Part shown: positions 9,738 to 63,158 of the stretch, piece after piece | Numbering within the stretch: position 1 is the stretch's first letter | Layout: every line of letters starts with the position of its first letter | Assembly (NCBI GenBank): GCA_041661865.1 | Contig: JBAZTO010000004.1 | Coordinates: 614 to 64,613, forward strand | DNA length: 64,000 nt | Reading direction: 5' to 3' | Source of the DNA: Phycisphaerae bacterium | GTDB lineage: Bacteria > Planctomycetota > Phycisphaerae > SM23-33 | Program-made: the position numbers and the translations under genes | Notes under the pieces: generated by a model | The model's input: the letters and a program-made list of their open reading frames with translations, nothing else | The model's database searches: none | What the model was told of the DNA's origin: nothing

Positions 9738-9740
9738 AGC

Positions 9741-9790
9741 CAATGACGAATGACGAAGTGCGAATGACGAATCAATGACGAAACGTCACG
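9741..9790. repeat. GAATGACGAA-family repeat arm (forward orientation) directly after lexA stop
   Basis: caatgacgaatgacgaagtgcgaatgacgaatcaatgacgaaacg; inverted partner at 11368-11420; complete IR copies at 30786-30909 and 34249-34380. Confidence 0.7.
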
Positions 9791-9977: not shown

Positions 9978-11168
9978 GTGAGATCAGAGAATGTAACGAT
10001 ATGGAAGAGAATACAGATCACCCTTCCTCACGCTTTTTGCATCGTGGTTCTGACGGCTACTGTCTTGCCCGCGCTTCATACTGTCGCCGGTTGGCTGCCC
10101 CAAGGTGTAGATGAAGACGGCGATAGAATTGATCCTTCCGTTGCCGTGGCCTTCTTTTCGCTGATTTTTTCGGTTTTGGTCTATTGGTGGCTGATTAGTC
10201 GGCTGCGAAAAGACGCAAAGCAAATTCGCGACCTGCGAACAGCCATTCAAATTGTGGCGTGCGACCAGCATGTCGATTGGCAGTCAGTGCCAGACCTCGA
10301 CACTTACCGCGAATCCCGAAATTTGCCGTTGGCAATGGCACTCGAAACGGCTGGAATCATACGGCCCAAACTCGAACTCGACGAACGCGAACGAGTGATC
10401 GCGTCTTGGCGTGCTCAACTCGATGAACCAGATCACGTGCGGGCTGTCAAAGAGGCACTCGAACACGGTCCATACAGCGGCATGTACTGGTCCTTCCAGA
10501 TTGTCAGCAGCGAATTCCGTAAGCTCATTCATCGTGAAACGCGGGAGCGATTTCCAAGAGAGTGCTACTTTGCAGAGCTTCACATTCTAATAGCGTACCG
10601 CGCAAGCGTGTTCCGGAAAGTGGCGTTTGCTGAAATGGCCAAAGATGTCGGGAATCCTTGTCTTGCGACCTTGATACATGCCATTGCCGAAATGGTGGAC
10701 AAGCCAGGCAATCCAAAGGAGATTGAAGAATCGACGCGTCGCGAACTCAATGAAGCCTTTGCCAGAGAAATAGAGCTTGAGTTACTCGAAGACGAAATCA
10801 AGAACTACGTGAAACTCCACCTAGAAGAAGCTGTGGTTCGCTGGCTAGCGAGATACAAGGATGATGCGGGTACGGTGGCCATATTCGACCGTTGGAAGCG
10901 ACTTCGCGACGGAGTTTCCAAGATGGCCGAATACCTTGGGCAAGCTAGGGGTTTCGCCACCGAAAGGCACGACATGGAGATGAACCTAAAGATTGACCGA
11001 TACGAATGGCTCAAGAATATGCAGGTTGGCAATGGAGCCAGACCTCGGAGTATCACCTGGGAGATGTACGAGGCGGCTAATAGGGGACTTGCCGCCTTCG
11101 CCAAGAGCGAGGCTGCTTTACCGGTCGACGAACCGAACAAGCCGACGTTGCCGCAAGAGCAGGATTAG
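9978..11168 (+). CDS. hypothetical membrane-anchored protein (low-GC cargo gene downstream of lexA)
   Basis: GTG start with AAGAGGGG SD; two N-terminal TM helices then about 300-aa soluble acidic/helical domain; GC clearly lower than neighbours; no recognisable family. Confidence 0.6.
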   Translation: MRSENVTIWKRIQITLPHAFCIVVLTATVLPALHTVAGWLPQGVDEDGDRIDPSVAVAFFSLIFSVLVYWWLISRLRKDAKQIRDLRTAIQIVACDQHVDWQSVPDLDTYRESRNLPLAMALETAGIIRPKLELDERERVIASWRAQLDEPDHVRAVKEALEHGPYSGMYWSFQIVSSEFRKLIHRETRERFPRECYFAELHILIAYRASVFRKVAFAEMAKDVGNPCLATLIHAIAEMVDKPGNPKEIEESTRRELNEAFAREIELELLEDEIKNYVKLHLEEAVVRWLARYKDDAGTVAIFDRWKRLRDGVSKMAEYLGQARGFATERHDMEMNLKIDRYEWLKNMQVGNGARPRSITWEMYEAANRGLAAFAKSEAALPVDEPNKPTLPQEQD

Positions 11169-11169
11169 T

Positions 11170-11420
11170 CCGTTTGCGGAAGGGCATGTTGATCGTGATG
11201 CCGTGGGCGGGTGCCGTGGTCGCGGCGTTTGCGACCACGAGCAGAAACGACGATACCCGCTCGCTTCGCGCTCGCGGCTAGTGCGCCAAGGCGCGGGCCT
11301 TGGTGCCTGCCTGCCGGTAGGCAGGTTGCGCGCCCTACATTCCGCTTAGTTCGTCCCCGCTGTCTTGGTCATTTGTGCTTCGTCATTGATTTGTCATTCG
11401 AGTTTCGTCATTCGTCATTC
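11170..11420. repeat. mosaic cluster of REP-like modules (BIME-like)
   Basis: Contains GGGTGCCGTGGTCGCGGCGTTTGCGACCACG (11210-11240, identical 31-mer at 56963), right half of CTAGCCGCGAGCGC element (11265-11295), CTGCCKGTAGGCAGGTTGCRCGCCCT module (11315-11345, also at 36519-36547) and inverted GAATGACGAA arm (11368-11420). Confidence 0.7.
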
Positions 11421-13218: not shown

Positions 13219-13351
13219 GTCCGATCCTTTCGTGACCCCGCTCTTGAAGATCGACGCGACAGCCGATCCTGCCGGGGTCCGCTGCCAGGTAATGATACAC
13301 CGTCATCGACGGGCCGTCACCAGGCTCTGTCACTCTTCAACCGACGGATCG

Positions 13352-13422
13352 GGTGCCACTGCTGCGGTGTTTGCAGCAGTGTTGAAGCTATGCACGGCTG
13401 CACACGACGCAGCCGTGGCACC
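13352..13422. repeat. 71-bp structured repeat: GGTGCCAC - hairpin - hairpin - GTGGCACC
   Basis: ggtgccactgctgcggtgtttgcagcagtg...cggctgcacacgacgcagccgtggcacc; near-identical copy at 32419-32489 and architectural variant at 32640-32712. Confidence 0.65.
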
Positions 13423-13454
13423 AGGTCAGATCAAGAGAGGGTGGAAAGCTGGAG

Positions 13455-16335: not shown

Positions 16336-16351
16336 CAGGTATCTCGACGCA

Positions 16352-16429
16352 CTAGCCGCGAGCGCAAAGCGAGCGGACTATTTCCTCTTCTGAACCGACA
16401 ATCCCCGCTCGCTTTGCGCTCGCGGCTAG
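16352..16429. repeat. 78-bp inverted-repeat element CTAGCCGCGAGCGCAAAGCGAGCGG - loop - CCGCTCGCTTTGCGCTCGCGGCTAG, 17 nt after prfB stop
   Basis: perfect 25-bp arms, loop ACTATTTCCTCTTCTGAACCGACAATCC; second full copy 21712-21779 after trpB; partial copies at 11265-11295 and 62836-62862. Confidence 0.7.
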
Positions 16430-16545
16430 TGCGTCAATGGCGGGCGATGCGGTGTGCGCGATCAAGAACCAGCGAGCCGTCTGAGGGGCTTGGGATCGCA
16501 TTGATGCGTTGACCCTGTCGGAATGTGCGGTTAAGCTGGCCGGCC

Positions 16546-19932: not shown

Positions 19933-19952
19933 CGCCGCTCTCCAAACAGAAT

Positions 19953-20065
19953 CACCAAGACCACAGAGAGCACAAAGATCACAAAGCACGCCAAATCAGG
20001 AACAGAAAGGCTGAGGTTCGTGCGGTTGCCTTTCTTTGAGGTCTTTGTGGCCTTCGTGGTTGTTC
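19953..20065. repeat. 9-bp-periodic inverted-repeat element (CACRRAGNN)x4 / spacer / (NNCTYYGTG)x3
   Basis: caccaagac cacagagag cacaaagat cacaaagca ... gtctttgtggccttcgtggttg; spacer contains AAAGGC/GCCTTT hairpin; lies in divergent NRDE/trpB promoter region. Confidence 0.65.
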
Positions 20066-21605: not shown

Positions 21606-21711
21606 TTGAACAACAGTGCGAAGTGCGTGGTGCGTAGTGCGAAGAACAACAACAGTGCGAAGTGCGTGGTGCGAAGAACAGCGGCGCCGCGCCAAGACGA
21701 ACTAGCCGCGA

Positions 21712-21779
21712 GCGCAAAGCGAGCGGATTATTTCCTCTTTTGAAACGACCACACCCGCTCGCTTTGCGCTCGCGGCTAG
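21712..21779. repeat. second full copy of the CTAGCCGCGAGCGCAAAGCGAGCGG inverted-repeat element, downstream of trpB
   Basis: same 25-bp arms and similar loop (ATTATTTCCTCTTTTGAAACGACCACAC); preceded by 24-bp direct repeat caacagtgcgaagtgcgtggtgcg x2 (21611-21671). Confidence 0.7.
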
Positions 21780-21863
21780 TTTGCCTTGGCACAGATCATG
21801 GTCGCAAACGCCGCGGGCCAGGGCACTCAGCCCTCTTCCCGGCTACTGACCACAGACTACCGG

Positions 21864-22082
21864 CTACTTCATTTCCTGGTTGAACTGGAAGACATCCTCG
21901 ACCGTCGTGCTGAAGAACCGCGCGATGCGGAAGGCCAGCGTCAGCGAGGGGGCGTACTTGCCGGCCTCGATGGCGAGGATCGTCTGTCGCGTCACACCCA
22001 CACGGTTGGCCAACTCCTGTTGGGTAATCTCCCCGGCGTCAAACCTCAGCCGCCGGATTCGATTGGTCAGTTCATCGGACAT
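21864..22082 (-). CDS. XRE-family helix-turn-helix transcriptional regulator
   Basis: ITQQELANRVGVTRQTILAIEAGK HTH_3 signature; start at MSDEL with SD AGAGGGA; low-GC, AT-rich upstream region. Confidence 0.75.
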   Translation of the reverse strand: MSDELTNRIRRLRFDAGEITQQELANRVGVTRQTILAIEAGKYAPSLTLAFRIARFFSTTVEDVFQFNQEMK

Positions 22083-22497
22083 GCTGTTCCCTCTCGCCTC
22101 GGCCATAGAGGACCAGCAGGATGATCGCCCGCGAGACGAACAGCACGATAAAGCCGCTAAACGTGATCAGCGGAAGGATTTCAATCGACACCGTCGTCTG
22201 CCCGCGGTGGTAGAGAATGTACCACGGGACGAAACTGGTCAGGACAAAGGTCAGGTACGACAGCATTCCGCCGCCAACGGTGGCCCGGCGGGCGATGTCC
22301 ACATCCCGCTCGTCGGCGGACACAATATCGGCCGAGGTTCTGCGAAAGAGGATTGGCCCCAGCCCGGCCAGACCGCACAGCCCAAATGCGCCCGTGGCGC
22401 CTTTCGGACCGACAAAAAGAAGAAGCGTTAGGAATCCCGTTAGAGCCAACGCGAATGCTCCCACAATTAGCCACGCCATCTTCTGCTCTCTGTTCAT
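22072..22497 (-). CDS. DUF2178-like membrane protein co-transcribed with the XRE regulator
   Basis: 4 TM helices; start at Met10 with SD AAGGGG; 3' end overlaps XRE start by 11 nt; a membrane protein paired with a short HTH protein is a common two-gene arrangement. Confidence 0.55.
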   Translation of the reverse strand: MNREQKMAWLIVGAFALALTGFLTLLLFVGPKGATGAFGLCGLAGLGPILFRRTSADIVSADERDVDIARRATVGGGMLSYLTFVLTSFVPWYILYHRGQTTVSIEILPLITFSGFIVLFVSRAIILLVLYGRGEREQHVR

Positions 22498-22800
22498 GTC
22501 GTACCCCTTCTGGCGATAAAACAATGATCTCTTTTGGAATGCTTAATACGGCAAAATAGTATACTATTACATACTTTATGTCAAGTATATAGTACATTTA
22601 TACGAATAAAATTGTTTGTGAATATAACTTGTTCCCAAGATAGGAGTTACAACCTAGAATCCCCCGACTAAGGACTACGGATTACCAAGAGATGCAACCC
22701 AATTGAGGATTGATAGTAGTTTCGCATGTCCGCAAACCTGCCGCAGTCATCGGACACAAGTTGCCACCTTGCCTGTGTCTGCTTACACAACGAGATGTTG

Positions 22801-22844
22801 CTGTTCTTTGTGGTCTCTGTGGCCTTCGTGATCTTCGTGATTTC
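22801..22844. repeat. 9-bp-periodic repeat arm (CTYYGTG orientation) overlapping rmuC stop codon
   Basis: ctgttctttgtggtctctgtggccttcgtgatcttcgtgatttc. Confidence 0.55.
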
Positions 22845-23937: not shown

Positions 23938-24099
23938 AAAGCACGGAGAACACGGAGACCGCAGAGAGCACGGAGCAAACCATCGTCGAGAAAAAGAAAC
24001 ACCCCGCGAAAGGCGGGGTGCTGGATTGCTCTTTGGGTCTTGTTCAGACTCTTGGACTGTTCTCTGTGGCCTTTGTGTTCTCTGTGATCTTTGTGATGG
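23938..24099. repeat. 9-bp-periodic inverted-repeat element flanking the rpoD terminator
   Basis: cacggagaa cacggagac cgcagagag cacggagca [spacer with terminator] ctgttctctgtggcctttgtgttctctgtgatctttgtgatgg. Confidence 0.65.
23986..24020 (-). terminator. rho-independent terminator of rpoD
   Basis: hairpin CACCCCGC-GAAAG-GCGGGGTG followed on minus strand by TTTCTTTTTCTC. Confidence 0.6.
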
Positions 24100-25770: not shown

Positions 25771-25904
25771 TCATAAACTCCCGGAGATCGCTCAAAGGGA
25801 AGAGTTCCTTCAACCTAAGGTACGAAATCGTGTCATTATAACCATGAGCATTGGGTTGTCAATGCGATGCGACGGCCACATTTCGCGAGCAGCACAATCC
25901 TTTA

Positions 25905-27715: not shown

Positions 27716-27935
27716 ATCACAGAGGGCACGGAGATCACAAAGATCACGGAGAATGGCAAACAGGGAAAGCACGAAGCCAAGGTACGACGAATCGTGCAAA
27801 GGTCAGGAACCGGACACTGCAAAGCCACCAGGCTCGTTGTTCTTTTTTCTGGTTTTTTCTGGCTTTCCGATAGGCACTATTCTCTCTTCAGCTTCTCTTT
27901 GTGATCTCTGTGTCCTTCGTGAGCTTTGTGATAGC
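27716..27935. repeat. 9-bp-periodic inverted-repeat element between dnaG start and rnhA end
   Basis: cacagaggg cacggagat cacaaagat cacggagaa [130-bp spacer with T-rich run] ctctttgtgatctctgtgtccttcgtgagctttgtgatagc. Confidence 0.65.
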
Positions 27936-30785: not shown

Positions 30786-30909
30786 ACAATGACGAATGAC
30801 GAAATGCAAATGACGAATCAATACTCGAATGCTCGAATATCCCAAACAGAATCCCGTGGACCCTGTTGGGTTATTCGTCATTGACTCGTCATTCGAGTTT
30901 CGTCATTTG
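30786..30909. repeat. complete about 125-bp inverted-repeat element of the GAATGACGAA family between gfo and mnmE
   Basis: acaatgacgaatgacgaaatgcaaatgacgaatcaatactcgaatgctcgaatat [central cccaaacagaatcccgtggaccctgttggg] ttattcgtcattgactcgtcattcgagtttcgtcatttg. Confidence 0.7.
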
Positions 30910-30926
30910 TATTGGGTGGTCTCTTC

Positions 30927-32345: not shown

Positions 32346-32418
32346 AAGTCAGCCTCTTGGAGTGTGCGATTCGATGCGGTACTCTCAACCGGTCGAAGAA
32401 CGATGCAGACAATGGATC

Positions 32419-32489
32419 GGTGCCACTGCCGCGGTGTTTGCAGCGGTGTCGGCCCCAAGCACGGCTGCACACGACGCAGCCGTGGCACC
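32419..32489. repeat. second copy of 71-bp GGTGCCAC-hairpin-hairpin-GTGGCACC element
   Basis: ggtgccactgccgcggtgtttgcagcggtg...cggctgcacacgacgcagccgtggcacc. Confidence 0.65.
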
Positions 32490-32639
32490 CATCGGATCAG
32501 ATGTTTGCTGATATGCAGGTGAACCCTTGAAACATCATCGAGCGGCGTTGATCGTCGCAGCCATCCTGGTCCTGGCCGGCGCAGCCTGCCTGGCGGTGCG
32601 GCTGCATCACTGCGGCGCTGGCAGGCCGAGTGCTTGCAG

Positions 32640-32712
32640 GGTGCCACCCCCAAACTCCGTTTGGGGGTGTGAAACGTTGGAACACCCCCAAGACAAACTT
32701 GGGGGTGGCACC
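32640..32712. repeat. architectural variant of the GGTGCCAC...GTGGCACC element with two different internal hairpins
   Basis: ggtgccac CCCCAAAC-tccg-GTTTGGGGG ... CACCCCCAAG-acaaa-CTTGGGGGTG gcacc; lies inside the predicted N-terminal extension of ORF 32527..33354. Confidence 0.55.
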
Positions 32713-33354: not shown

Positions 33355-34289
33355 GCGCGCCCGCGCGTAACGGCTGGCTGCCCGCCTGGCCGGGGCATCT
33401 GCGGCGGGCTGGCGTGCTGGGCATGAACGCCCGCAACACCCAACTGCTCGTGGCGCTGAACCCCAGGCGGCTCTACGACCTGGTCAACGACAAGATCCAG
33501 ACCAAGGAACTGTGCCTCCGCGAGGCGATCCCCACGCCGCGAACCTACGCGATCCTCGACCACCCCGCGCAGGTGCCCGCGGCGGCGGAGATCATGCGGC
33601 AGGCCGGCCAGTTCGTGGTCAAGCCCTCGCGCGGCAGCGGGGGCCGCGGTGTGCTGGTCATCGCCGGCAGCGAAGAGGGCGACTTCCGCACCTCCAGCGG
33701 CGTCGCGATGAGCTGGGACGAGATGCGGTACCACCTGCTGATGACGCTGGCCGGCGCGTTCTCCATCGGCGGCCGGGCCGACCGCGTGATCATCGAGCAG
33801 CGCGTCAGCCGCCACGCCGCCTTTGAAGGCCTGGCCGTCAACGGCACGCCGGATGTGCGACTGATCGTCTATCGTGGCAGCGCCATCATGGGCATGCTTC
33901 GCCTGCCGACGCTGGCCTCGGGCGGCCGGGCCAACCTCCACCAGGGCGCGCTGGGGCTGGGCCTGGACATCGCCACGGGCGTGTCCACCGGCGGCTTCTG
34001 CCGCGACCGCAGCGTGGAAGTTCATCCCGACACCGGGGCGGCCCTGACCGGCGTGGCTGTGCCGCGATGGAAGGAAATGCTGGCCGTGTCGGAGAAACTG
34101 TCAGCCGCGGTGGGCCTGGGCTACCTGGGCGTGGACATCGTGCTGGGCGAGGAGGGCCCGCTGGTCCTGGAGGCCAACGGCCGGCCGGGACTGTCCATCC
34201 AGATCGCCAACCGCTGCGGATTGATGACGCGGATCGCCGAAGCCGAGAATCGAATGACGAATGACGAAACTCGAATGATAAATCAATGA
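33351..34289 (+). CDS. ATP-grasp alpha-L-glutamate ligase-like protein (RimK-related)
   Basis: ATP-grasp motifs VVKPSRGSGGRGV, LGYLGVDIVL, LEANGRPG; GTG start overlapping upstream stop; last 13 codons ([13 protein letters not shown]) are encoded by the GAATGACGAA repeat arm. Confidence 0.8.
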   Translation: MSAPARNGWLPAWPGHLRRAGVLGMNARNTQLLVALNPRRLYDLVNDKIQTKELCLREAIPTPRTYAILDHPAQVPAAAEIMRQAGQFVVKPSRGSGGRGVLVIAGSEEGDFRTSSGVAMSWDEMRYHLLMTLAGAFSIGGRADRVIIEQRVSRHAAFEGLAVNGTPDVRLIVYRGSAIMGMLRLPTLASGGRANLHQGALGLGLDIATGVSTGGFCRDRSVEVHPDTGAALTGVAVPRWKEMLAVSEKLSAAVGLGYLGVDIVLGEEGPLVLEANGRPGLSIQIANRCGLMTRIAEAENRMTNDETRMINQ

Positions 34290-34380
34290 CGAATAACCCC
34301 ATACGTTTCGCGTGTTTCTGTTTGGGGCATTCGAGCATTCGAGTATTGATTCGTCATTCGAGTTTCGTCATTCGTCATTA
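34249..34380. repeat. complete inverted-repeat element of the GAATGACGAA family overlapping the 3' end of the ATP-grasp gene
   Basis: atcgaatgacgaatgacgaaactcgaatgataaatcaatgacgaataacc ... cattcgagcattcgagtattgattcgtcattcgagtttcgtcattcgtcatta. Confidence 0.7.
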
Positions 34381-34400: not shown

Positions 34401-35252
34401 ATGCACATTCTGGCCACCATCGTTCCCGCCGAGATCAACAACGTCTACGTCTTCCTGATCCTGGGCAGCCTGTCGGCCATGCTGGTGGCCGTCGCCAAGG
34501 CCGGCTTTGGCGGCAGCATCGGCATGCTGGCCTACCCGGTGATGTTGTACGCCTTCGGCGGCGACGCGTTCCTGGCCGCCGGCACGCAGTTGCCGCTGCT
34601 GATCGCCAGCGACATCCCAGCCCTGGTGCGGTGGTGGCGCAAGTGGAACGGCCACGCCGTGCGAATGCTGCTGCCCGGGGCGCTGGCCGGCATCGGCCTG
34701 GCGTGGTGGGCGCTGTGGATGCTCATCGGCGATGGCCGCACCGCCGAGCAGGTCAAGGTCGCCAAGGCCCAGGCCAACGGCGTGCTCCTGCTGCTGGTGG
34801 GCGTGATCGCGCTGGCCTTCGTCAGCCTGCAGGTGATCCGCTACCTTCGCCGGCGGGCGCTGGCCTTTCGCCCGGTCCCCTGGCAGGGCGCGGTCGCCGG
34901 CGGCCTGACGGGCGTCTGCTCCATGCTGGCCAATGCCGGCGGGCCCATTACCACCATGTTCCTGCTGCCCCAGGAAATGCCCAAGGGCATGTATGTGGCC
35001 ACCACCGTCCTGCTCTACGCCGTCATCAACGAGGTCAAGATCGCGCCCTTCTGGCATCTGGGGATGATGACGCCGCACACGCTGTGGGCCGGACTGCTCC
35101 TGCTGCCCGCGGCGGTGGCCGGCACGTTCCTGGGCCTCTACCTCCACGACCGCGTCGGCCAGAAACAATTCAACGGCATCGCCTACTCGCTGCTGTTCCT
35201 GGCCGGCATCGACATGGTGCACAAGGGCGTCAGGATCCTTTGGTTCTCATAG
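34401..35252 (+). CDS. TSUP (TauE/SafE) family anion exporter
   Basis: 283-aa, 7-8 TM, duplicated 4-TM halves with GGxxG/PLL motifs typical of TauE/SafE. Confidence 0.85.
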   Translation: MHILATIVPAEINNVYVFLILGSLSAMLVAVAKAGFGGSIGMLAYPVMLYAFGGDAFLAAGTQLPLLIASDIPALVRWWRKWNGHAVRMLLPGALAGIGLAWWALWMLIGDGRTAEQVKVAKAQANGVLLLLVGVIALAFVSLQVIRYLRRRALAFRPVPWQGAVAGGLTGVCSMLANAGGPITTMFLLPQEMPKGMYVATTVLLYAVINEVKIAPFWHLGMMTPHTLWAGLLLLPAAVAGTFLGLYLHDRVGQKQFNGIAYSLLFLAGIDMVHKGVRILWFS

Positions 35253-35313
35253 TGCGAAAGTGCGAAGCGGCAGGTCGTAGCGAAGTAGGGCGTGCAACTT
35301 GTTGCACGCAGGA
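35253..35313. repeat. composite REP: GTGCGAAAGTGCGAAG module + GTAGGGCGTGCAACTTGTTGCACGC palindrome
   Basis: immediately after TSUP stop; inverted counterparts at 36487-36575 on the other side of the methyltransferase gene. Confidence 0.6.
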
Positions 35314-35341: not shown

Positions 35342-36382
35342 TTACTCCCGCACCAAGTCCGCAACAAATCGCCGTCCCATCTGGTCTGGCTCGCGAGAGG
35401 TCGTGACGACCTTCTTGACGCAGAACCCGCTCTTCACCGCAAGGTGGAGCATATGGGTCTTGTCCACGAATATGTCCGCTTTCCGGGCAATTCGCCGGTA
35501 ATTATTTGCGGATACATTTGGAACTAGCCAGGGCTTTTCGCTATGGCATAACAGGAAGTGCCCACCGGGGCGGAGAACACGATGAGCTTCCTGAAACATA
35601 GTCGATATGCCGGCAAGTTCGCCGAAGGCATTAGAACAGGTCGCCACATCAAACGCTTCCGTCATGAGCGGCAACGCGCGAACATCACCACCGACGGCGT
35701 CGGCTCGTTGTTCTGCTTTTGCAACCCTGAACTTGTACTGCAACGTCCACAGGCATCGCAAGTCGCGCTCCACAGATATAGTTCTTTGAATGCTCCGGCA
35801 GTTGTGCAGCAGCCTGCTGATGAACCATCCACCGCCCGAGGCCAGATCGACGACAGAATGCGGCGACAGGTTACGAACTTGGCACACCATTTCCTCTACT
35901 TCGGAGCGCAAGCTTTGCTTCGTCGCTATCGGCCTTGAGATTGTTGCGACTCCGGAGATTGGCTTGCTCTTCGCGGCCCAACCGAGTAACCGGCTGCGAG
36001 CCTCACGAACTTGGCTAGGTGTGATCCGCCAAAGCCTCCGGCCCGACCGAAGATTCTCCCAAGGCCGTCGGAGATCTAGCTTGGAGCCGCGGCATACAGC
36101 TTGAACCAGTTCAGCGACGCGAGAATCTGTACAAGAGCCGGGCTGGTCGCTCAACACCTCGGCTAATGCGCATGACCATGTATTGCGGGCGCCTGGCGGT
36201 AGCAGGACCGGCCGCCCCAGCACTATGGGGTATCGTGTTCTGCATTCCTCGCATCGCAGGTGTCGGCCTCTTGTCTGCGGGCCAGACATACTCGCGATGC
36301 GCAGCGATCCCATACAGGCTGGACAGGCTAGGTAAGCGATGCTTTCTCTTCTCATAAGGCCACCCCGTTTCTGTTCGCTCAT
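35342..36382 (-). CDS. Trm112-like zinc ribbon fused to class I SAM-dependent methyltransferase
   Basis: N-terminal CPAC...CEECRTRYPI ribbon; MTase motif I VVDLASGGGWF and post-I VLRPGGHFLL; GC lower than flanks. Confidence 0.8.
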   Translation of the reverse strand: MSEQKRGGLMRRESIAYLACPACMGSLRIASMSGPQTRGRHLRCEECRTRYPIVLGRPVLLPPGARNTWSCALAEVLSDQPGSCTDSRVAELVQAVCRGSKLDLRRPWENLRSGRRLWRITPSQVREARSRLLGWAAKSKPISGVATISRPIATKQSLRSEVEEMVCQVRNLSPHSVVDLASGGGWFISRLLHNCRSIQRTISVERDLRCLWTLQYKFRVAKAEQRADAVGGDVRALPLMTEAFDVATCSNAFGELAGISTMFQEAHRVLRPGGHFLLCHSEKPWLVPNVSANNYRRIARKADIFVDKTHMLHLAVKSGFCVKKVVTTSREPDQMGRRFVADLVRE

Positions 36383-36426: not shown

Positions 36427-36575
36427 AAGGCGTGCAACGAGTCTGCCACGGCGGCCAGGGTTCTGCACGCGGAAGAAACAATTCCCCGCGTGCAACGAGT
36501 TGCACGCCCTACTACCAACTGCCTGTAGGCAGGTTGCACGCCCTGCCAATTTCGCACTTCGCACTTTCGCACTGC
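36427..36575. repeat. cluster of REP modules inverted relative to 35253-35313
   Basis: aaggcgtgcaac[insert]gcacgcggaag; cgcgtgcaacgagttgcacgccctac; ctgcctgtaggcaggttgcacgccctgcc; aatttcgcacttcgcactttcgcactgc. Confidence 0.6.
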
Positions 36576-38720: not shown

Positions 38721-38808
38721 CAACACAGAGGTCACAGAGCGACAGAGCAGAACACCCTTGTATTCAAAATATGTTGTCTCTGTTTCTCTGCGACTCTGTG
38801 TCGCGTAG
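38721..38808. repeat. 9-bp-periodic inverted-repeat element with 16-bp spacer
   Basis: cacagaggt cacagagcg acagagcag aacaccc ttgtattcaaaatatg ttgtctctgtttctctgcgactctgtgtcgcgtag + TGTTTTTCGG. Confidence 0.6.
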
Positions 38809-38868: not shown

Positions 38869-38908
38869 GATCAATCTGCAATCTGCAATTGGCAATCTTC
38901 AATCTACA
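38869..38908. repeat. tandem heptamers CAATCTG x5 in the promoter region of the FAD-oxidoreductase gene
   Basis: gatCAATCTGCAATCTGCAATTGGCAATCTTCAATCTACagg; coordinates +/-2 nt. Confidence 0.45.
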
Positions 38909-62775: not shown

Positions 62776-62946
62776 TACCTGGTTATCGACTTCCGGTTTC
62801 TTGATTTTTCGATTTCAGCCGCCGCGGGTGCCCAGATCAAACCAGCCGTGAGCGCAAAGCGAGCGGAAATCCTGGCGACACTTTCCGGCCTCGCGAGCAA
62901 AACAGTCTACAACGTCGCCCGGCGGTTTGCACTCTCATTGCGTTCT

Positions 62947-62972
62947 GGTAGCACAGGCGTCCCGCCTGTGCT
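62947..62972. repeat. inverted single copy of the CACAGGCG palindromic unit
   Basis: ggtagcacaggcgtcccgcctgtgct. Confidence 0.6.
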
Positions 62973-63017
62973 CTGGAACCCTATCGGCGATTGTTTGTAG
63001 TCTTACGGCCTTACACC

Positions 63018-63158
63018 CACAGGCGAGACGCCTGTGCTACCACACTCACAGGCGAGACGCCTGTGCTACCACACTCACAGGCGAGACGCCTGTGCTACCA
63101 CACTCACAGGCGAGACGCCTGTGCTACCACACTCACAGGCGAGACGCCTGTGCTACCC
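63018..63158. repeat. tandem array of five 29-bp units CACAGGCGAGACGCCTGTGCTACCACACT (no spacers)
   Basis: exact 29-nt period at 63018, 63047, 63076, 63105, 63134 (last unit truncated); each unit contains the CACAGGCG-AGA-CGCCTGTG palindrome. Confidence 0.8.

Follow-up and report, generated by a model that had tools for sequence, protein, structure and literature searches.

Paired arrays of CACRRAG nonamers at gene ends in a Phycisphaerae genome and across bacterial phyla

The closest described counterparts of the repeats reported here are the 'class 2 global regulator binding sites' of Geobacter metallireducens, catalogued as 21 pairs by Aklujkar et al. 2009 (PMC2700814). [quoted passage not shown] We analyzed a 64,000-nt stretch of a Phycisphaerae (Planctomycetota) metagenome-assembled genome (63.7% GC, with a DnaG protein 100% identical to one assigned at NCBI to such a bacterium; hereafter the window) that contains inverted-repeat elements with arms of CACRRAG-NN units, here called CAC-nonamer elements. 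Read on the opposite strand, the class 2 consensus corresponds to the CACGGAGA-type nonamer of this family, and the window arms share the class 2 repeat description (CTYYGTG-NN units at 9-bp spacing, three to four per arm), its pairing (four of the five window loci) and its multicopy intergenic location (five loci in 19 kb beside unrelated genes). Judged by sequence, the two appear to be one family that had already been noticed. The window copies differ in having arms of four units with mixed unit variants, and the same sections treat the sites as protein-binding DNA, with no hairpin, covariation or cross-phylum range described.

We favor, with about even confidence, a reading in which the CAC-nonamer elements are extragenic palindromes akin to repetitive extragenic palindromic (REP) sequences and act through hairpin formation at gene ends. 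This reading draws on the covariation of the two arms, their fixed polarity, their location after genes and within operons, an inversion in place, and a patchy pattern of gain and loss.

Arm grammar and pairing

CACRRAG-NN arrays are present between 19.9 and 38.8 kb of the window as four inverted pairs and one lone arm, interspersed among housekeeping genes. The single heptamer CACRRAG is barely above chance (47 matches vs 35 ± 5.6). Two successive units with up to two mismatches give 25 matches vs 5.6 ± 2.6, a count reached by 0 of 100 shuffles, and the real two-unit matches are confined to five loci. Tandem Repeats Finder and an inverted-repeat finder each detect arrays, with inverted pairs I7, I16 and I17 corresponding to elements A, D and C; a generic tandem-array detector was too strict and missed degenerate CAC arrays. 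The sequence-only reading of the window, an earlier reading made from the letters alone, had located arrays of three or four tandem 9-mers at these five loci, and the sequence confirms them. It had also assigned two arms to every locus and spacers of 16-130 bp. The locus at 22801-22844 has one arm only: its four CACRRAG units read along the minus strand, and within 300 bp no partner is present. The gaps between paired arrays measure about 30-145 bp. The component parts, by window position, are as follows.

19951-19988 (heptamers 19953-19986), plus strand: element A 5' arm, CACCAAG, CACAGAG, CACAAAG, CACAAAG
20032-20060 (heptamers 20034-20058), minus strand: element A 3' arm, three units, one degenerate
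22804-22841 (units 22806-22841), minus strand: lone arm, four exact units, CACGAAGAT CACGAAGGC CACAGAGAC CACAAAGAA
23940-23977 (heptamers 23942-23975), plus strand: element C 5' arm, CACGGAG, CACGGAG, CGCAGAG, CACGGAG
23998-24022, minus strand: rpoD terminator in the element C loop, canonical GC-rich hairpin and T-run
24060-24097 (heptamers 24062-24095), minus strand: element C 3' arm, four exact units
27716-27753 (heptamers 27718-27751), plus strand: element D 5' arm, four exact units, ATCACAGAG GGCACGGAG ATCACAAAG ATCACGGAG
27754-27894: element D loop, about 141 bp (145 bp array to array), with one stray CACGAAG at 27770-27776
27895-27932 (heptamers 27897-27930), minus strand: element D 3' arm, four exact units, CACAAAGCT CACGAAGGA CACAGAGAT CACAAAGAG
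38724-38747, plus strand: element E 5' arm, CACAGAG GT CACAGAG CG ACAGAG, degenerate
38778-38800, minus strand: element E 3' arm, plus-strand sequence CTCTGTT T CTCTGCG A CTCTGTG, 8-bp spacing, degenerate

All window pairs carry the purine-rich CACRRAG arm 5' and the CTYYGTG arm 3', an order that is identical on both strands because the repeat is inverted. The element D 5' arm reads CACAGAG-GG, CACGGAG-AT, CACAAAG-AT and CACGGAG at 9-bp spacing; window arms mix the variants CACAGAG, CACGGAG, CACAAAG and CACGAAG, with the CTCCGTG variant found in elements C and D. Element A, with about 45 bp from array to array, has one degenerate unit per arm, the element C loop measures 82 bp (86 bp array to array), and element E has a gap of 30 bp and a unit spacing of 8-9 bp. 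The loops of the window copies show no mutual similarity and have only the arm grammar in common.

The pattern of three successive units was scanned in one genome per species, and the family-wide figures here cover the matches listed. It occurs at 120 or more loci in at least 12 phyla, compared with a calculated chance expectation of about 17 matches over the whole collection. Listed carriers include Planctomycetota, Acidobacteriota, Chloroflexota (including Herpetosiphon aurantiacus and Oscillochloris), alpha-, beta-, gamma- and delta-proteobacteria, Bacteroidota, Gemmatimonadota, Cloacimonadota and Verrucomicrobiota/Lentisphaerae/Kiritimatiellae, among others, and a separate scan of viral contigs is likewise rich in matches. 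The earlier description of the arrays as a family of REP-like inverted-repeat elements gains from this survey: the units recur massively outside the window, in many phyla and in viral contigs, and the arms remain inverted pairs. Within a 320-nt search distance, bacterial arrays have a complementary partner downstream in 56% of cases and upstream in 2%, and short pairs number 60 in the purine-arm-first order vs 3 in the reverse order.

Alignment of 148 arms on the outer unit yields an A-rich 5' flank, then T, T, A/C, A, C, followed by three copies of CAC-RRAG-RR; the NN positions are about 80% purine, and the 3' flank is T-rich. The unit number is exactly three in 140 of 152 index arms, with a mode of three in the unconstrained partner arms; this genome has four. 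The slipped-strand-prone stem and unit-number polymorphism envisaged from the sequence alone therefore find no echo in the family. A contingency locus, in which slippage changes the unit number and switches the expression of neighbors, would suit tandem short units that lie near start codons (the dnaG ATG is 18 nt away). The fixed number, the differences between units within window arms, which hinder slippage, the housekeeping neighbors and the location of the arrays upstream of -10-like boxes all speak against it, and we give it next to no probability. The Logan contig L001, in which polymorphism was sought, is 100% identical to the matching part of the window.

The two arms vary together. 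Watson-Crick pairing at the 12 variable positions reaches 61% for true partners (with a further 13% G.T) vs 44 ± 2% for shuffled partners. Across 57 elements, 86.8% of cells are paired vs 81.6 ± 0.5%, and double-sided changes number 190 vs 97 ± 12 (0 of 500 shuffles as high), with the RR positions of both arms switching together between A.U and G.C. The stem is accordingly described as three 7-bp helices with small interruptions, since the RR positions covary and the NN spacers are often unpaired. Outer flanks are complementary in 71% of cases vs 59% for shuffled partners, indicating that pairing tends to extend outward, and loops (median 52 bp, interquartile range 27-113, up to 300 nt) fold better than shuffled sequence (median z -1.4), with pairing running inward from the arms. 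Many apparently lone arms have degenerate partners.

Window elements fold at z -3.4 to -6.4. The plus strand, antisense to the genes, reaches -89.9 and -87.1 kcal/mol vs -70.8 and -67.7 kcal/mol for the minus strand, a difference of about 19 kcal/mol, and arm-to-arm differences are G.U-compatible on the plus strand only. An antisense small-RNA gene on the plus strand would account for both features, but no promoter is predicted for it, and 38 co-directional elements elsewhere display no sense/antisense folding bias (81 vs 72). Strand-specific selection on RNA was rejected as a family trait on the same comparison. Because the window plus strand is G-rich, its cumulative GC skew climbing throughout, and other genomes show no bias, we infer that the asymmetry stems from replication-strand mutation bias (C to T, A to G), which would produce exactly such a pattern, rather than from antisense RNA. 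The small-RNA explanation retains very little probability.

Placement, turnover and spread

The window elements occupy intergenic spacers, with a stop codon upstream of them and conserved -10-like boxes on the other side; the boxes before dnaG and rmuC are probably -10 elements. On the minus strand, the RNase H stop codon (27942) is followed after about 10 nt by a four-unit arm of element D, the 141-bp loop, the second four-unit arm, which adjoins a -10-like TAAGAT box, and then, after 18 nt, the dnaG ATG (27698). The rpoD stop codon (24109) is likewise followed after about 12 nt by one arm of element C, its loop and its other arm, located just upstream of a conserved TACAAT box and about 50 nt from the rmuC ATG (about 23890, minus strand). 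The lone arm begins 2 nt past the rmuC stop codon (22844) and borders a 42%-GC island. Element A is the sole window copy in a divergent spacer, flanked by a TANGO2-like gene (minus) and a PALP family gene for a pyridoxal phosphate (PLP) enzyme (plus). Elements A-E thus lie near RNase H, dnaG, rpoD, rmuC, TANGO2-like, PLP enzyme and SDR genes, with MutS, GrpE, DnaJ, release factor and MnmE genes farther away.

Elsewhere, approximate gene calls assign 38 pairs to co-directional, 15 to convergent and 4 to divergent contexts, often 2-40 bp past a stop codon. The class 2 pairs read in the Geobacter gene-context table comprise 10 3'/5', 3 3'/3' and 0 5'/5' cases (PMC2700814), and to the extent of that table the placement rule is therefore reproduced independently. 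The tabulated pairs include pdhA-pdhB and ntrY-ntrX, which lie inside operons without a T-run.

Location after stop codons, with enrichment between convergent genes, and A-rich 5' and T-rich 3' flanks would be expected if intrinsic terminators of unusual length, acting in both directions, had evolved in place. Five or more T in the 8 nt after the stem are found at 39% of sense ends and 53% of antisense ends vs 8% of random positions, and canonical terminators are otherwise scarce over the 20-kb stretch (18 found vs 14.7 expected). However, these T-tails show no preference for the strand of the upstream gene, and the elements as a class are not classical terminators. Operon-internal copies lack a T-run (gmd-fcl and, in the Geobacter table, pdhA-pdhB and ntrY-ntrX), loops extend to 300 nt, the element C loop holds its own canonical terminator, the only convincing one of the 20-kb stretch, and evolution in place cannot yield an identical nonamer in many phyla. 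The terminator explanation accordingly carries little probability. Arms bracketing a canonical terminator, as in element C, were also considered as a family trait and rejected, as a canonical hairpin is present in 1 of 64 long loops.

Phage and cassette contexts were inspected separately. Each of the IMG/VR contigs L135, L170, L178 and L188 carries several lone arms in one orientation, 4-30 nt before start codons, and these arms keep a TTCAC/TTTAC/TTAGC flank; they may constitute a repeated leader or boundary element. A sense-strand leader role for phage arrays in general was discarded, since the overall count is 39 sense vs 33 antisense. In an Opitutaceae metagenome-assembled genome (L071, 62-359), a GxxExxY gene (TIGR04256) directly follows a three-unit arm, and the GGAGGA of the preceding unit stands at Shine-Dalgarno distance. 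No other GxxExxY gene was detected by tblastn in 248 loci. Arms as gene-cassette boundaries were rejected as a general explanation: the L071 case is single, open reading frames (ORFs) do not generally start after arms, and gene-sized pairs are no commoner than the reverse order.

Gain and loss are rapid, and occurrence among close relatives is extremely patchy. Four syntenic relatives (DnaG 68-74% identical) keep the gene order CT398-RNase H-dnaG-rpoD-rmuC as well as TACAAT/TAGAAT-like boxes before dnaG and rmuC, and have no nonamer arrays in the orthologous spacers or anywhere else in 87 kb. It follows that the window elements are additions specific to their lineage, placed after a stop codon and ahead of the downstream promoter. 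In Bacteroides ovatus, a copy inside the gmd-fcl operon (L246, 2500-2574), without a T-run, reads TTCAC-(CACAGAGGA CACGGAGGG CACAGAGGA)-AAAAATAAGA-(TCCTCCGTG TCCTCTGCG TCCTCTGTG)-GTGAA. The same junction of B. finegoldii (L248) carries an element that is 70/74 identical when one of the two is inverted and 59/75 identical in direct alignment, with collinear flanks (56/60 and 63/66 identical). Relative to one species, the entire hairpin is inverted in the other at an unchanged site. The element is absent at the gmd-fcl junction of Phocaeicola massiliensis (L249).

Elements are found on plasmids, chromids and viral contigs, with BLAST retrieving copies on Bacteroides, Gemmatirosa and Pseudoalteromonas replicons, and whole-element copies exist within some genomes (L077, L031). 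On a Pseudoalteromonas shioyasakiensis megaplasmid (L247, 2380-2700), a unit of about 240 bp containing a CAC-nonamer element is tandemly duplicated. None of 5,426 E. coli genomes has the element, probably the reason the family was overlooked. The only Rfam match in the window at the gathering threshold is a tRNA elsewhere, and none overlaps the elements at E ≤ 1. In the literature, neither the literal sequence nor general REP and transposable-element terms led to a bacterial match.

This distribution is also what a selfish, non-autonomous element without host function would leave, its arms acting as terminal inverted repeats for a transposase supplied in trans, in the manner of MITEs (miniature inverted-repeat transposable elements) or foldback elements. 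Presence and absence differ between syntenic relatives, the termini are conserved, copies travel on plasmids, chromids and viral contigs, whole-element copies occur in L077 and L031, and two oppositely oriented copies of a heptamer-type element of the window share 86% identity. Against this, no obvious direct repeat marks a target-site duplication, the flanks being complementary rather than direct in a comparison made without a clean empty site, and pairing often runs into them. The 92 neighboring proteins, covering 161 Pfam families, show no enrichment of mobility enzymes, and no transposase is apparent in the window. Arm pairs at gene-sized distances number 13 in inverted vs 18 in reverse order and, since such pairs are not enriched, give no sign of an autonomous, gene-carrying version. 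With window loops unrelated to one another in addition, we regard a purely selfish element as improbable.

Proposed hairpin action and possible factor recognition

In the REP-like reading, an arm module of about 32-40 nt, composed of an outer TT(A/C)AC-type flank and three units (four in this genome) of CAC-RRAG-RR, would pair in vivo with its reverse complement 10-300 bp downstream on the same strand. Three or four 7-bp CACRRAG:CTYYGTG helices, separated by partly paired 2-nt spacers, would form in single-stranded DNA, in cruciforms or in transcripts that read through the gene end. Because the element follows a stop codon and precedes the next promoter or start codon, its action would resemble that of REP sequences and bacterial interspersed mosaic elements (BIMEs): it would serve at mRNA 3' ends as a barrier or a site of processing and would insulate neighboring transcription units from each other, rather than act as a classical terminator. 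Spread would probably proceed by horizontal transfer together with some copying mechanism, given the quick gain and loss and the plasmid and phage-contig copies, and the arms may be kept alike by recombination or template switching within the element.

Several observations weigh against this reading. Lone arms, which cannot act by pairing, are common, with only 19% of viral-contig arrays paired, and the rpoD terminator in the element C loop implies that the main rpoD transcript carries one arm only. T-rich tails are not sense-specific. In 30-55% of elements the NN spacers lack pairing, and the unit sequence is conserved across phyla far more strictly than a hairpin alone requires; together, these two features suggest recognition by some factor. 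Spread meets its own difficulties: no target-site duplication is apparent, the unrelated loops mean that simple copy-and-paste of whole elements does not explain the window copies, and no transposase, REP-associated tyrosine transposase (RAYT) or nuclease is tied to the elements among the window proteins and the 92 neighbors (top 25 families listed).

The main alternative is recognition of double-stranded DNA by a repeat-binding protein, as the sequence-only reading also envisaged. Each arm would offer three or four sites of 9 bp to a nucleoid-associated or global regulatory protein, and proteins bound to the two inverted arrays could bridge or loop the spacer. Regulator binding had already been proposed for the Geobacter copies (PMC2700814). 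This alternative accommodates the conservation across phyla, beyond pairing needs, of the core CAC..AG, of the purine-rich spacers and of the outer TT(A/C)AC, as well as the unit number fixed at three, the poorly paired NN positions and the phage-contig lone arms that persist with the same flank. Independent double-stranded sites would not, however, need the covariation of RR positions between arms (A.U to G.C, few mismatches). Placement after genes with depletion in divergent promoter regions is the opposite of typical operator placement, distribution is extremely patchy among close relatives even though distant phyla share the same sequence, and no candidate gene is linked among the 92 neighboring proteins. 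We know of no universally conserved protein with CAC-nonamer specificity. On balance, paired protein-binding arrays seem rather unlikely.

A related, rather unlikely possibility is that the arm is the recognition module of a horizontally spreading system, in which a conserved protein or enzyme reads three 9-nt units as double-stranded DNA, hairpin DNA or RNA. Such a system could be a hairpin-directed mobility enzyme or a phage- or plasmid-borne RNA- or DNA-binding regulator, and would explain why a 32-nt grammar is kept from Bacteroides through Geobacter and Planctomycetes to phage contigs while loops and positions are not. Strict unit conservation, fixed unit number, poorly paired spacers and lone arms suggest that factor recognition should be kept in view beside the REP-like reading. 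Slippage or phase variation, classical termination and antisense small RNA are not supported.

Whichever mechanism applies, the CAC-nonamer grammar is present in intergenic hairpins of 12 phyla or more, including gut Bacteroides, Geobacter and phage contigs. If the hairpins act, they would form a widespread unannotated control layer at gene ends, affecting operon stoichiometry at, for example, gmd-fcl, pdhA-pdhB and the dnaG-rpoD neighborhood; a conserved factor that reads the arms, if there is one, would be new biology. The consensus is usable as an annotation rule, points to places of local inversion and possibly of insertion of foreign DNA, and should be masked in promoter and small-RNA searches.

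Other short-unit repeats and known systems

The window contains further repeats of similar design. AATGACG/CGTCATT heptamer hairpins of the same architecture fill stop-to-start spacers at 30788-30910 and 34251-34379, with related arrays at 9740-9782 and 11368-11420. Over 127 nt, with the loop counted in, the two short copies share 86% identity, and they lie in opposite orientations relative to plus-strand genes. An AATGACG-type hairpin is located upstream of rmuC in a relative (L122, 14870-14960), and the unit is essentially absent from diverse loci. AGTGCGA/TCGCACT arrays form a tight inverted pair directly past a stop codon at 347-419 and, at 21615-21676, two direct arrays past the PALP gene stop without a partner. 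Relatives of the window carry other heptamer-unit hairpins, the heptamer units being lineage-specific; one such hairpin (L125, 5907-5995), between trmE and oxidoreductase genes, consists of AGTACCC/TGTAGCC heptamers, in which GTAG, the REP-type tag, is contained. Five tandem CAATCTG heptamers at 38872-38905, beside element E and the SDR stop codon, have no inverted partner in view.

Two wide heptamer-arm pairs bracket genes. The pair 9740-9782 and 11368-11420 encloses a 396-aa ORF (9978-11168, about 52% GC) without a Pfam match, and the pair 35251-35266 and 36550-36573 encloses a methyltransferase gene (35342-36382, about 57% GC against a background of about 66%) within a nested inverted repeat GGGCGTGCAA (35289-35312 / 36500-36545). 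These lower-GC segments may be foreign DNA inserted in hairpin loops, or chance neighbors. The island at 21700-22800 has the lone AGTGCGA arrays on one side and the lone CAC arm on the other. It contains an Xre-type HTH gene (21864-22106, minus), an ORF (22072-22524) and, at 22400-22800, DNA of 42% GC in which several promoter-like sites lie, and looks like acquired DNA.

The genome is unusually rich in extragenic palindromes. At 63013-63157, a 29-bp unit (ACACTCACAGGCGAGACGCCTGTGCTACC, with a palindrome within) is repeated perfectly five times in tandem, accompanied by an inverted copy at 62946-62970; the region 62946-63157 looks like a BIME-like cluster of a different repeat. Intergenic palindromes with core GCCGCGAGCGCAAAGCGAGCGG (31-36-nt arms, 28-nt loop) are found at 16346-16435 and 21691-21790, and those of the GGTGCCAC...GTGGCACC type at 13347-13427, 32415-32493 and 32640-32712. 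Between dnaG and rpoD, a perfect sigma-70 consensus promoter TTGACA-16-TATAAT (12/12) is present at 25835-25862 on the minus strand.

Comparison with known systems sets aside several resemblances. The DnaA box does not fit (TTATCCACA vs TTAACCACA), with A instead of T at position 4, and for split parS (TTTCAC|GTGAAA), sigma-54 and RuvC sites neither the conserved positions nor the genomic context agree. Integron attC sites (RYYYAAC ... GTTRRRY) are rejected because only about one third of flanks are AAC...GTT and the neighbors are housekeeping genes with their own promoters. Phase-variable repeats do not agree with the essentially fixed unit number. Intrinsic terminators differ in architecture, as the CAC-nonamer stem is about 30 bp long and interrupted, with loops of up to 300 nt.

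MITEs (Correia/NEMIS, enterobacterial repetitive intergenic consensus) and foldback elements share terminal inverted repeats, a variable middle and intergenic location with the elements described here, and foldback elements have inverted arms made of short tandem subrepeats. The shared internal sequence and related autonomous insertion sequence of MITEs are not seen in the window; L077 and L031 have whole-element copies. Hairpin-associated minute inversions with collinear flanks are known from chloroplast non-coding DNA and resemble the gmd-fcl flip, in that the loop and the asymmetric arm positions flip between related species; they are a general property of inverted repeats, not an element family.

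REPINs are inverted doublets of REP sequences that give a long hairpin. REP, BIME and REPIN sequences, including the GTAG- and CGTC-tagged superfamilies, span several phyla, with proposed roles in mRNA stabilization, termination and DNA topology (Di Nocera et al. 2013, PMC3733652). CAC-nonamer elements resemble them in being high-copy and extragenic and in lying at gene 3' ends and inside operons. The REP unit is a short palindrome with a GTAG or CGTC head, whereas CAC-nonamer arms are non-palindromic and flanked by TT(A/C)AC, and no RAYT is visible near the elements in the window proteins or the 92 neighbors (top 25 families listed).

Other short-unit arrays share the architecture, and the sequence-only reading's view of a 9-bp periodicity as unusual gives way before them: short-unit hairpins occur in the same genome (heptamers), in Geobacter (octamer and heptamer) and in Xanthomonas (GGGAATC). 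Besides class 2, the Geobacter sections describe paired class 1 (GTTGCTYN, four units, octamer) and class 3 (MTYCTGA, five units, heptamer) sites (PMC2700814), and Xanthomonas has about 70 convergent pairs of GGGAATC heptamers that hold their position between species, with up to 14 units per array (Rehm et al. 2015, PMC4692102). These families and the cyanobacterial short tandemly repeated repetitive (STRR) heptamers consist, like the window elements, of intergenic arrays of 7-9-nt units in stem-loop-capable pairs, at tens to hundreds of copies per genome. Their unit sequences are different and lineage-specific, and in Xanthomonas the unit number varies widely; the CAC nonamer, in contrast, keeps a fixed unit number and is common to many phyla.

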